Origin: a virus
Taxonomy: Duplodnaviria; Heunggongvirae; Uroviricota; Caudoviricetes
DNA: 4,553 bases
Strand: one strand, 5' to 3'
IMG/VR virus record: IMGVR_UViG_2531839239_000019
Shown: piece by piece, positions 979-4,404 of the stretch
Layout: every line of letters starts with the position of its first letter
Numbering within the stretch: the stretch's first letter is position 1
Notes under the pieces: model-generated
Told to the model about the DNA's origin: nothing
Seen by the model: only the letters and a program-made list of their open reading frames with translations
Database searches by the model: none
Translations under genes and position numbers: made by a program

Positions 979-1045
979 AAATCATATATTTTATGTAAAT
1001 CTGATATTTTGCCAATGTTGTACGCACTGGCAGTAATCCAAATTC

Positions 1046-1080
1046 AAGCCCGAGGTTTAAAGCCTTGGGCTTTTCTGTTT
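1046..1080 (+). terminator. Hairpin plus U-rich tract (terminator-like element 1, Q-S intergenic)
   Basis: aagcccgagg (1046-1055) pairs with ccttgggctt (1063-1072), a 10-bp stem with one G-U pair and a 7-nt loop, followed by ttctgttt (1073-1080). Confidence 0.35.
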
Positions 1081-2068: not shown

Positions 2069-2526
2069 GCAGAATAACCGCGATTATCTCCGCTCTGCTC
2101 ATCTGCATCATCGTCTGCCTGTCATGGGCTGTTAATCATTACCGTGATAACGCCATTACCTACAAAGCCCAGCGCGACAAAAATGCCAGAGAACTGAAGC
2201 TGGCGAACGTGGCAATTACTGACATGCAGATGCGTCAGCGTGATGTTGCTGCGCTCGATGCAAAATACACGAAGGAGTTAGCTGATGCGAAAGCTGAAAA
2301 TGATGCTCTGCATGATGATGTTGCCGCTGGTCGTCGTCGGTTGCACATCAAAGCAGTCTGTCAGTCAGTGCGTGAAGCCACCACCGCCTCCGGCGTGGAT
2401 AATGCAGCCTCCCCCCGACTGGCAGACACCGCTGAACGGGATTATTTCACCCTCAGAGAGAGGCTGATCACTATGCAAAAACAACTGGAAGGAACCCAGA
2501 AGTATATTAATGAGCAGTGCAGATAG
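2065..2526 (+). CDS. Rz: Rz, inner-membrane spanin subunit (i-spanin)
   Basis: 153 aa with an N-terminal TM segment ([20 protein letters not shown]) and a coiled-coil-like periplasmic part. ATGA start/stop overlap with R (2065-2068). Near-identical to lambda Rz as recalled. Confidence 0.93.
2285..2467 (+). CDS. Rz1: Rz1, outer-membrane lipoprotein spanin subunit (o-spanin), embedded in Rz in the +1 frame
   Basis: 60 aa with a signal peptide and lipobox (LVVVGC) followed by a proline-rich mature part ([15 protein letters not shown]). Strong SD AAGGAG 8 nt upstream of the ATG. Lies entirely inside Rz in a different frame, as in lambda. Confidence 0.9.
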
Positions 2527-2550
2527 AGCTGCCCATATCGATGGGCAGCT
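2527..2550. terminator. Hairpin between the convergent Rz and bor genes (possible bidirectional terminator)
   Basis: agctgcccat (2527-2536), loop atcg, atgggcagct (2541-2550): a perfect 10-bp stem sitting exactly between the Rz stop (2526) and the bor stop (2558). No clean T-tract on either side, so a terminator function is uncertain. Confidence 0.4.
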
Positions 2551-2557
2551 CATGCAA

Positions 2558-2851
2558 TTATTGTGAGCAATACACACGCGCTTCCAGCGGAGTATAAATG
2601 CCTAAAGTAATAAAACCGAGCAATCCATTTACGAATGTTTGCTGGGTTTCTGTTTTAACAACATTTTCTGTGCCGCCACAAATTTTGGCTGCATCGACAG
2701 TTTTCTTCTGCCCAATTCCAGAGACGAAGAAATGGTGGGTGATGGTTTCCTTTGGTGTTACTGCTGCCGGTTTGTTTTGAACAGTAAACGTCTGTTGGGC
2801 ACATCCTGTAATAAGCAGGGCCAGCGCAGTAGCGAGTAGCATTTTTTTCAT
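2558..2851 (-). CDS. bor: Bor outer-membrane lipoprotein (serum-resistance moron)
   Basis: 97 aa starting MKKMLLATALALLITGC with lipobox LITGC. Matches lambda Bor as recalled almost residue for residue. Encoded opposite to the lysis genes. Confidence 0.93.
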   Translation of the reverse strand: MKKMLLATALALLITGCAQQTFTVQNKPAAVTPKETITHHFFVSGIGQKKTVDAAKICGGTENVVKTETQQTFVNGLLGFITLGIYTPLEARVYCSQ

Positions 2852-2984
2852 GGTGTTATTCCCGATGCTTTTTAAAGTTCGCAGAATCGTATGTGTAGAA
2901 AATTAAACAAACCCTAAACAATGAGTTGAAATCTCATATTGTTAATATTTATTAATGTATGTCAGATGCGAAGGATCGTCACTG

Positions 2985-3050
2985 TATTCCCGGATTAACT
3001 ATGTCCGCAGCCCTGACAGGGAAACTCCTCTGCGGGAGTGTCCGGGAATA
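2985..3050. repeat. Nested inverted repeat (potential large stem-loop or protein-binding site) upstream of bor and downstream of the ybcV-like gene
   Basis: Outer arms tattcccgga (2985-2994) and tccgggaata (3041-3050) are a perfect 10-bp inverted repeat; inner arms ccgcag (3005-3010) and ctgcgg (3030-3035); innermost ccctg/caggg (3011-3021). Confidence 0.5.
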
Positions 3051-3142
3051 ATTAATAACGATGCACACAGGGTTTAGCGCGTACACGTATTGCATTATGC
3101 CAACGCCCCGGTGCTGACACGGAAGAAACCGGACGTGATGAT

Positions 3143-3553
3143 TTAGCGTGGAAAGATTTGTGTAGTGTTCTGAATGCTCTCAGTAAATAGTAATGAATTA
3201 TCAAAGGCATAGTAATATCTTTTATGTTCGTGGATATTTGTAACCCATCGGAAAACTCCTGCTTTAGCAAGATTTTCCCTGTATTGCTGAAATGTGATTT
3301 CTCTTGATTTCAACCTATCATAGGACGTTTCTATAAGATGCGTATTTCTTGAGAATTTAACATTCACAACCTTTTTAAGTCCTTTTATTAACACAGTGTT
3401 ATCGTTTTCTAACACAATGTGAATATTATCTGTGGCTAGATAGTAAATATAATGTGAGACATTGTGACGTTTTAGTTCAGAATAAAACAATTCACAGTTT
3501 AAATCTTTTCGCACTTGATCGAATATTTCTTTAAAAATGGCAACCTGAGCCAT
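3143..3553 (-). CDS. ybcV: Uncharacterised DUF1398-family protein (YbcV / lambda p78-like), AT-rich moron
   Basis: The ORF track gives 3143..3676 (177 aa) from a TTG start. I prefer the internal ATG at 3553 ([11 protein letters not shown]…, 136 aa) because it has an SD GGAAGG 8 nt upstream and matches the 136-aa length I recall for E. coli YbcV. About 31% GC versus about 48% in the lysis genes. Confidence 0.7.
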
Positions 3554-3838
3554 TGGTAAAACCTTCCATGTGATACGAGGGCGCGTAGTTTGCATTATCG
3601 TTTTTATCGTTTCAATCTGGTCTGACCTCTTTGTGTTTTGTTGATGATTTATGTCAAATATTAGGAATGTTTTCAATTAATAGTATTGGTTGCGTAACAA
3701 AGTGCGGTCCTGCTGGCATTCTGGAGGGAAATACAACCGACAGATGTATGTAAGGCCAACGTGCTCAAATCTTCATACAGAAAGATTTGAAGTAATATTT
3801 TAACCGCTAGATGAAGAGCAAGCGCATGGAGCGACAAA
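3554..3838. promoter_or_regulatory. Divergent intergenic region between the ybcV-like and ybcW-like genes (putative divergent promoters)
   Basis: 285-bp AT-rich spacer between divergently oriented genes. Contains a tandem tatcgttt repeat (about 3596-3612), a TTGACA hexamer on the minus strand (3653-3658) and a TAATAT hexamer on the plus strand (3793-3798). I could not assemble a convincing -35/-10 pair with correct spacing, so promoters are not located. Confidence 0.3.
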
Positions 3839-4045
3839 ATGAATAAAGAACAATCTGCTGATGATCCCTCCGTGGATCTGATTCGTGTAAAAAATATGCT
3901 TAATAGCACCATTTCTATGAGTTACCCTGATGTTGTAATTGCATGTATAGAACATAAGGTGTCTCTGGAAGCATTCAGGGCAATTGAGGCAGCGTTGGTG
4001 AAGCACGATAATAATATGAAGGATTATTCCCTGGTGGTTGACTGA
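3839..4045 (+). CDS. ybcW: Small uncharacterised protein (YbcW / lambda p79-like)
   Basis: 68 aa, [20 protein letters not shown]…; SD GGAG at 3828-3831, 7 nt before the ATG. Length and sequence fit the DLP12 YbcW protein as I recall it. Divergent from the ybcV-like gene. Confidence 0.7.
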
Positions 4046-4209: not shown

Positions 4210-4404
4210 TCATTCTTCATCACTTTTAATTGATGTATATGCTCTCTTTTCTGACGTTAGCCTCCGACGGCAGGCTTCAATGACCCAGGCTGAGAAATTT
4301 CCGGACCCTTTTTGATCAAGAGCGATGTTAATTTGTTCAATCATTTGGTTAGGAAAGCGGATGTTGCGGGTTGTTGTTCTGCGGGTTCTGTTCTTCGTTG
4401 ACAT
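4210..4404 (-). CDS. ylcI: Small ribbon-helix-helix-like DNA-binding protein (YlcI / DUF3950-like)
   Basis: 64 aa with a basic N-terminus (MSTKNRTRRTTTRNIRF) followed by a pattern that looks like a beta-strand and two helices (IRFPNQMIEQINIALDQKGSGNFSAWVIEACRRRL), typical of Arc/CopG/MetJ-type RHH proteins. ATG at 4404 with GGGG about 9 nt upstream. Fold assignment is from sequence pattern only. Confidence 0.65.
   Translation of the reverse strand: MSTKNRTRRTTTRNIRFPNQMIEQINIALDQKGSGNFSAWVIEACRRRLTSEKRAYTSIKSDEE

Follow-up and report, generated by a model that had tools for sequence, protein, structure and literature searches.

A conserved three-domain element between the lysis and packaging genes of lambdoid phages, a candidate structured RNA of the late transcript

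The DNA analysed here, hereafter the window, is a 4,553-nucleotide (nt) stretch of the Caudoviricetes record IMGVR_UViG_2531839239_000019 and represents the late region of a lambdoid prophage of the Escherichia coli O157 type, positions 2500-3700 being 99.8% identical to O157:H7 chromosomes. On the + strand, a Q-like open reading frame (ORF; 205-978) is followed by the genes for the holin (1288-1605), the endolysin R (1592-2068), Rz (2065-2526) and Rz1 (2285-2467). Next come bor (2558-2851, - strand), ybcV (DUF1398; 3143-3676, -), a 68-amino-acid (aa) ORF (3839-4045, +) and a ylcI-like ORF (4210-4404, -). The subject of this report is a nested inverted repeat at 2985-3050, in the 291-bp gap between bor and ybcV. 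The ATG of bor (2851) is 134 bp away and the stop codon of ybcV (3143-3145, -) 93 bp away, in agreement with the placement given by a first-pass annotation of this DNA. Comparison of its relatives identifies the repeat as helices P2-P4, the core hairpin of domain I of a module of about 175-186 nt. The whole conserved three-domain element occupies 2963-3136 on the + strand of the window (174 nt; 183-186 nt in most relatives) and the ybcV stop codon lies outside it, 7 nt past its right edge; the 66-bp repeat is thus real, while the limits first drawn for it were too narrow.

In the window, the outer arms TATTCCCGGA (2985-2994, +) and TCCGGGAATA (3041-3050, +) are complementary at all 10 positions, and the inner arms CCGCAG (3005-3010, +) and CTGCGG (3030-3035, +) were located as described. 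The innermost repeat, CCCTG-A-CAGGG at 3011-3021, is present in the sequence; however, only three to four of its five pairs are physically possible, because a 1-nt loop cannot form, and RNAfold draws four. The three repeats are nested, as had been claimed, but they are not strictly concentric: their centres differ (approximately 3017.5, 3020 and 3016), which gives the hairpin asymmetric internal loops. A long hairpin had been proposed on the basis of these arms, and folding supports it. The 66-mer reaches -30.5 kcal/mol on the + strand (z -4.40, none of 200 shuffles as good) and -27.4 kcal/mol on the - strand, for which the folding check had been suggested (z -3.28, 1 of 200 shuffles as good). 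The GC-rich hairpin of an intrinsic terminator is therefore available (P2-P4, -30.5 kcal/mol), but not the 3' U run, since P2 is followed by AUUAAUAACG on the + strand and by CAGUGACGAU on the - strand. A terminator scan gave no match at 2985-3050, and the earlier statement that this is not a canonical intrinsic terminator holds, the T-tract after the hairpin being absent on both strands.

A BLAST search with the intergenic sequence matched 371 of 50,697 phage records, and many of the matches cover the surroundings of the repeat alone, at 73-82% identity, between flanks that share nothing. A pattern scan combined with nhmmer gave 138 copies in lambdoid phages and prophages, 70 of which are distinct over domain I; the conservation of these 138 copies with compensatory change makes the repeat more than a chance arrangement. 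Conservation runs 3' of the repeat through two more hairpin domains. A covariance model (R1), built on 30 non-redundant copies, finds the element in the window at 2963-3136 (+) with 145.8 bits and E 2.5e-39, the window copy being part of the training alignment, and places it in reference lambda at 46,864-47,035 (+) and in the K-12 prophage DLP12 at 579,005-579,177 (+). It is unannotated in the lambda reference record, in K-12 DLP12 and in the other records examined. Stx-converting prophages carry it too, and in ES18 about 185 nt are conserved at approximately 75% identity to the E. coli phages. On the Sakai chromosome (NC_002695.2), copies lie at 1,946,752-1,946,937 (+, Sp10), 1,779,454-1,779,639 (+, Sp9) and 2,234,444-2,234,629 (-, Sp12), and Sp15 has one as well. 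A scan of genome contigs returned mostly chance matches, because the pattern specifies 17 bases only; the real ones came from Escherichia, E. albertii, Intestinirhabdus and a few contaminated or misassigned contigs. True copies were seen in assemblies labelled Candidatus Nanosynbacter, Pseudomonas yangonensis, Thiomicrorhabdus and 'Proteobacteria bacterium' (L139, L150, L165 and L199). Their occurrence there, in some cases on very short contigs, suggests contamination or mis-binning of E. coli prophage or lambda DNA.

Domain I is predicted to stack four helices. The basal helix P1 pairs GGATCGT (2973-2979, +) with ACGATGC (3058-3064, +); across the family (alignment columns 10-16/95-101) 99% of its cells are paired and U.G, U-A and C-G alternate at two pairs, and in the window copy G2974 and G3063 are mismatched. 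P2 corresponds to the outer arms, and family-wide 4 of its 10 pairs vary on both sides, for example as U-A/U.G/C-G and C-G/U.G/G-C. For P3, the inner arms, the conserved helix comprises only 3006-3010 and 3030-3034; the 3005/3035 pair is confined to lambda-type copies, most others having C, T or A there and lacking the pair. In P3, 98% of cells are paired, with C-G/U.G alternating at one pair and one double change from C-G to U-A. The apical hairpin P4 (CCC-loop-GGG, 3011-3021, +; pairs 3011-3013/3019-3021) is the innermost repeat, and its three pairs are retained in nearly all copies. P4 is nevertheless dispensable, as a 10-nt deletion removes the whole hairpin in Stx2_707-type copies; the other indels seen inside the element are of 1 nt.

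The two further domains lie 3' of this hairpin. Domain II of most relatives consists of a covarying hairpin clamped by GGG...CCC, with arms that read, for instance, CCGCG/CGCGG, CTGTG/CGCAG or CAGC/GCTG; the window copy (about 3070-3107, +) is a divergent, ybcV-linked variant. Domain III is a hairpin at 3108-3132 (+), in which CCGG (3108-3111) pairs with CCGG (3129-3132) across a 17-nt loop that ends in the invariant GGAAGAAA (3121-3128). Five of its six stem pairs vary on both sides (GTCCGG/CCGGAC, GTCCTG/CAGGAC and CTCGA/TCGAG, among others), and the GAAGAAA of the loop is invariant. The near-invariant unpaired segments of the element are AUUAAC, GAGUGU, AAUCAAAAA, CACACC, CUCAU-G-UCGCC and the GGAAGAAA loop, and the 3' block is near-invariant in 127 of the 133 copies retrieved through the 5' half alone. 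Three candidate motifs were rejected: a Chi-like GATGGTGG in the domain III loop and a UUAA kissing interaction between domains I and II are not conserved, and GGA (CsrA-type) motifs show no enrichment, with 5 seen against about 3 expected by a rough estimate.

The pairing itself is under constraint. Over the 70 distinct domain I sequences, 98.3% of cells are paired and five pairs show double changes, a result reached by none of 500 shuffles. For the full structure, scored on the 30 non-redundant copies, 93.8% of cells are paired and 14 of the 40 pairs vary on both sides, compared with 5.8 ± 1.5 in shuffled alignments; 0 of 500 shuffles equalled the family on all five measures, and registers slid by 1-3 columns gave 36-61% pairing only. 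The mismatches also distinguish the strands, since T.G or G.T is a wobble pair only in RNA of the + strand and C.A or A.C only in RNA of the - strand. Cells of the G.U type outnumber those of the C.A type by 151 to 9 in domain I and by 89 to 15 over the whole element (21 against 8 pair columns), and 95.7% of cells are paired when the element is read as + strand RNA against 89.2% when it is read as - strand RNA. Both A/G and C/T transitions contribute to this asymmetry, and a one-sided mutation bias is not its cause because unpaired columns vary both C/T (14) and A/G (8). These counts favour selection acting on the single-stranded form of the + strand, which is the sense of the late transcript.

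The genomic position is equally consistent. All informative copies are found downstream of Rz and upstream of the terminase genes and point the same way as these genes, whether bor and ybcV are present or not. The upstream neighbour may be Rz directly, bor (-), rha (+) or others, and the downstream neighbour the terminase directly, ybcV (-), ylcI (-) or the 68-aa ORF (+). Where accessory genes are absent, the element begins 11-16 nt past the Rz stop, and its 3' end is separated from the cos region by about 55 bp, or from the small terminase gene by 290-435 nt. In VT1-Sakai the BLAST match begins 8 nt after the Rz stop and the terminase genes come next; in ES18 the element follows rha near the end of the genome record, and in Lambda_4B5 it follows bor. 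A comparison of relatives with and without the flanking genes had been proposed as a check on the repeat, and the element proved present and conserved in them. This is difficult to reconcile with the first-pass view of a - strand feature downstream of ybcV and upstream of bor, given that the same orientation is kept after Rz in the absence of bor and before the terminase in the absence of ybcV.

The edges of the element are sharp. Among copies with different flanks, identity is about 0.25 outside the left edge and about 0.75 inside it, and at the right edge, just past domain III, it drops from about 1.0 to about 0.25 again, so that homology among copies in different contexts begins and ends within a few bases of 2963 and 3136. 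The flanks fall into 21 classes on the left and 18 on the right, which occur in 39 combinations; together with the sharp edges, this indicates that insertions avoid the interior of the element. Breakpoints of homology between unrelated neighbourhoods coincide with its edges, as at a mosaic boundary, and in this respect the link to a moron boundary, suggested at first pass, was well founded. What lies between the edges, however, is an intact, constrained module of about 180 nt with covarying helices, and its 14 compensatory pairs and strand-specific wobble excess do not fit a passive crossover patch or scar. The comparative data show a discrete conserved unit, constrained in a strand-specific manner, at a fixed point of the late operon and independent of bor and ybcV.

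Taking these observations together, we consider it probable that this unit is a functional + strand RNA element of the late operon, and we infer that it is transcribed within the Q-dependent late transcript and works there as RNA. The transcript from pR' would carry it between the lysis cassette (S-R-Rz) and the packaging genes. There, the long irregular hairpin could be cut by RNase III or could block exonucleases, and in this way the element would let the lysis mRNA and the downstream head and tail (morphogenesis) mRNA have different fates and would protect the untranslated spacer between Rz, cos and the terminase, about 430 nt or more, which would otherwise be exposed. That the element acts in this way, as a cis-acting processing and/or stability module, is a tentative proposal. 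A processing site had been among the functions suggested at first pass, and it is our best remaining guess. The geometry of domain I matches that expected of an RNase III site, about two turns of irregular duplex: P1 (7 bp), P2 (10), P3 (5) and P4 (3) are stacked with internal loops, between cistrons. The available part of a K-12 RNase III survey lists no site between borD and ybcV, in a late operon of DLP12 that is hardly expressed. A 1988 paper by Daniels et al. reportedly deals with RNase III processing sites in lambda late RNA.

Several points weigh against this interpretation. The evidence so far is comparative only. Domain II is degenerate in lambda-type copies, including that of the window, with most of the model pairs broken. 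Folded as a whole, the window copy shows no + strand preference (z -1.35 for the + strand and -2.59 for the - strand), and single-sequence folding energy of the whole element gave no strand discrimination. The sequences are closely related, with a mean column identity of 81-89%, which leaves few double changes and means that the counted cells are not independent events. Single-stranded DNA also tolerates G.T, so that the wobble asymmetry is not strict proof of RNA. Moreover, the loops are as conserved as the stems, beyond the needs of a simple nuclease site or exonuclease barrier. Among the 133 copies retrieved through the 5' half, four are truncated and three of these have no intact partner in the DNA examined, so the element may be dispensable. 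Lambda packaging and lysis have been reconstituted with no known need for this region.

Of the known systems, RNase III hairpins (lambda sib and N-leader, and T7 sites of the R0.3-R1.1 type) resemble the element in being long irregular hairpins with internal loops, placed between transcript blocks and lacking a U-tract; by this likeness the element plausibly sets mRNA ends and differential stability. It differs from them in having three domains and near-invariant loops, beyond what the known sites require, and no sequence similarity to sib or the T7 sites is known. The put RNAs of HK022 are lambdoid stem-loop RNAs that work in cis on their own transcript. They are located immediately after early promoters and target RNA polymerase; the present element lies several kb away from pR', and the phages that carry it already use Q. 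We place the element, newly noticed and unannotated, as a candidate among the structured cis elements of phage polycistronic mRNAs. No description of it turned up in Rfam, in the lambda, K-12 or Sakai annotation, or in a literature search that did not extend to several of the key older papers on lambda.

A different possibility is that cleavage of the late transcript releases the element as a stable non-coding RNA, acting in trans or autonomously, with a conserved factor of host or phage as its binding partner, for example as a decoy for a protein or small RNA or as a factor near cos. The near-invariant unpaired segments suggest specific recognition rather than a mere duplex, no cis partner is conserved, because the surrounding Rz and terminase types vary, and in the arrangement without accessory genes the element ends about 55 bp before cos. 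We nevertheless regard this as unlikely: no conserved promoter and no U-tailed terminator at the 3' end were found for the element, there is no Rfam family match, and abundant RNA from this region is unreported. Two weak, non-conserved promoter-like sequences were rejected, namely GATAAT on the + strand, with no -35, and TTTACG-17-TATCGT on the - strand, whose -35 falls in a variable loop. The domain II hairpins were likewise discarded as terminators, being weak, non-conserved and followed by only 2-3 U. The more specific version, in which the element is an autonomous late-expressed RNA of a new family, with its invariant loops recognised and a role as RNA-binding-protein decoy or as packaging cofactor by cos or pac, seems to us quite unlikely; if true, such an RNA would have gone unnoticed in lambda itself.

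Known RNA families were searched accordingly. ARAGORN found 0 tRNA or tmRNA genes in the window, and Rfam 15 gave no match at the element at E<=1. With lax filters, a 281-nt stretch searched at E<=10 returned only noise (E>5). In three Sakai loci with the element nothing matched it at the gathering score, and AgvB and STnc100 were found elsewhere in the same locus. Prophage small RNAs (AgvB, AsxR, StxS, Esr41, STnc100, PasA-D and IsrK/IsrJ) resemble the element in being non-coding and located in lambdoid late regions at sites of accessory-gene insertion. They lie between pR' and the holin gene or elsewhere, with their own promoter and/or terminator and with Hfq binding (PMC4104026; bioRxiv 10.64898/2026.05.13.724894), whereas the element follows Rz, has neither promoter nor terminator and matches none of their Rfam models. 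AgvB, AsxR, Esr41, STnc100 and the Pas RNAs were therefore rejected as identities for it, on location and on the lack of a model match.

One published signal lies close by. Tree et al. 2014 (Table S2) list Hfq-crosslinking peaks or orphan sites EcOnc10, EcOnc11 and EcOnc12 in the Sakai prophages Sp12, Sp10 and Sp9, respectively, and the printed coordinates put EcOnc11 and EcOnc12 inside domain I, on the antisense strand. We calibrated NC_002695.1 against NC_002695.2 by means of AgvB, whose Rfam match (1,941,920-1,941,981) and published position (1,941,783-1,941,835) differ by about +137 to +146. After correction, the peaks fall at least 19 nt outside the element, on the opposite strand, and were rejected as a signal of it, which also removes them as support for a trans-acting RNA. 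In Sp10 (L203) they lie on CTGCTGTG...CACGGCAG followed by T7 (6476-6447), the element being at 6253-6438. This site is the canonical terminator of the leftward ylcI-like (DUF3950) gene, with equivalents in Sp9 (L204) and Sp12 (L205), and the corrected EcOnc10 lies between the ylcI-like stop and the element. EcOnc10-12, found in the same prophages about 20-80 nt from the right edge of the element, thus differ from it in strand, in position and in being a ylcI-like terminator hairpin with its T7 run; they are probably 3'-untranslated-region-derived RNA of the ylcI-like accessory gene. As these peaks map outside, there is no published RNA signal at the element itself. Coordinates of 2014 mapped directly onto NC_002695.2 misplace EcOnc sites near 1.94 Mb by about 140 nt.

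The element might instead work as DNA, either as a recombination linker of mosaic phages or as a site for a packaging or architectural protein by cos, which we judge decidedly unlikely. The junctions at both edges are sharp and the flanks reassort freely, and with accessory genes absent the element is close to cos; recombination is stimulated left of cos (PMC3945230). There is also direct evidence of a crossover within the element: L043 5021-5136 (- strand of the locus) is a hybrid of a lambda-type 5' half and a Stx-type 3' half, in which a G.G mismatch breaks a P2 pair. Paired copies bracket an accessory gene in two loci. In L013 they lie at 5053-5237 and 6003-6187 and in L040 at 12459-12643 and 10751-10858, with a + strand accessory ORF whose sequence begins MKELQKINSIMERL between them and lambda-type cos, Nu1 and A downstream; the second copy of L040 breaks off after P3, where it is fused to sequence leading into GGGCGGCGACCTC (cosN). 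A passive linker, however, would not show compensatory changes or an excess of G.U over C.A of at least 6 to 1. The element also occurs in ES18, a headful-packaging phage, as well as in cos phages, and in lambda it is 1.5 kb from cos. Published mosaic boundary linkers and moron junctions (Juhala et al. 2000, as cited in PMC4104026) share with it homology that starts and stops at the edges and insertions on both sides; the element differs in its length of about 180 nt, its covarying helices and its strand constraint, and behaves as a functional unit that insertions avoid. As for a symmetric protein-binding site, suggested at first pass, a dimeric site would keep its half-site sequence, whereas here the arms covary, the nested centres differ with asymmetric loops, and most contexts have no bor.

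A palindrome was seen next to the element in VT1-Sakai (L003, about 2690-2715): the near-perfect AAATGATAACCATTATCATTT, about 10 nt after its end and before GC-rich, cos-like sequence. It recurs in the right-flank classes R2, R3, R13 and R16 and resembles a Fur box, and the 5' end of the PrrF Rfam model aligned there at E 6.8. An operator responding to iron is one possible role, and a contribution to the cos architecture another.

A function on the - strand, as a 3' end or pause or processing site for leftward ybcV or ylcI transcripts or as a bor operator, is very improbable. The window copy does fold slightly better on that strand (z -2.59), and a sigma-70-like promoter match for bor (CTGACA-16-AACAAT, 2938-2965, -; a consensus match only) abuts the left edge. 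But the element is conserved where no leftward gene adjoins it, as in the Rz-element-terminase order of VT1-Sakai, bor is missing near most copies, and transcription of the ylcI-like gene is served by a canonical terminator of its own immediately outside the element. Within the family, substitutions that disrupt - strand pairing are tolerated and - strand wobbles avoided, the two counts given above (89 against 15, and 95.7% against 89.2%) both running counter to the - strand reading of the first pass. An operator for bor is unlikely, since the promoter match lies outside the element and the sequences upstream of bor that meet this edge are of two unrelated kinds; the predicted promoter belongs to the bor-linked left flank, which is missing in copies without bor. 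Within 3053-3121, the - strand of the window can form a terminator-like hairpin (3121-3069) followed by AUCGUUAUUAAUUAUU, formed by the antisense sequence of the divergent domain II and of a portion of domain III, and the consensus scan also flags 3086-3061 as terminator-like. This hairpin and its U-rich tail may well terminate ybcV in the window copy. The earlier interpretation was borne out for the hairpin and for its not being a canonical intrinsic terminator, and found no support for the strand, the role for bor or ybcV and the scar.

A structure in + strand single-stranded DNA, such as a priming or assembly signal on the displaced strand in late rolling-circle replication, would likewise show strand-specific pairing with tolerated G.T, and the hairpins are long and irregular; this is highly improbable, as the sequence gives no hint of a primosome site and RNA accounts more simply for a location where two parts of a transcript meet. 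We know of no priming or assembly signal of this sort in lambdoid phages. Finally, a small protein-coding gene can be practically discounted, for although ORFs of 30-40 aa overlap the element on both strands, some phage records annotate a 'hypothetical protein' and many copies begin with ATG, the element carries the 1-nt indels and the 10-nt deletion, the A of the ATG has an identity of 0.38 with CTG, GTG, CAG or CCG replacing the codon, no Shine-Dalgarno sequence is seen in the variable flank, and substitutions track helices rather than codons. In many copies a 10-codon frame runs from the ATG to an invariant TAA within the AUUAAC loop (2966-2998, +; MRCIVAVFPH* in the common type). Its start codon is not conserved and no Shine-Dalgarno sequence was seen for it, and it is probably fortuitous; a ribosome reinitiating after Rz would, even so, unwind P1 and P2.

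If the element is indeed a late-operon RNA, lysis and virion assembly would have a further point of post-transcriptional control between them. Segments of the late mRNA of lambda have long been observed to decay at different rates, and no mapped cis element is known to account for this. Lambda is the reference temperate phage, and an unannotated conserved structure there is unexpected; the role of the element is directly testable in lambda. Because it marks the exact insertion point of bor, ybcV, ylcI and rha, the element offers a landmark for annotating prophage late regions and for studying the acquisition of virulence-associated accessory genes.

Two further observations concern the genes of the region. 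Directly 3' of the Q-like ORF, the stretch 994-1073 (+) matches the Rfam model isrJ below threshold (30.4 bits, E 0.0087; gathering score 37) and ends in a GC hairpin followed by UUU. This prophage probably encodes its short pR'-tR' leader RNA here, equivalent to the 6S RNA of lambda and to StxS. In lambda (L247, 1143-1676), the ybcV homologue (DUF1398) is named lambdap78 by RefSeq and labelled 'head protein', which looks like an annotation error, since E. coli RefSeq genomes use the DUF1398 naming.

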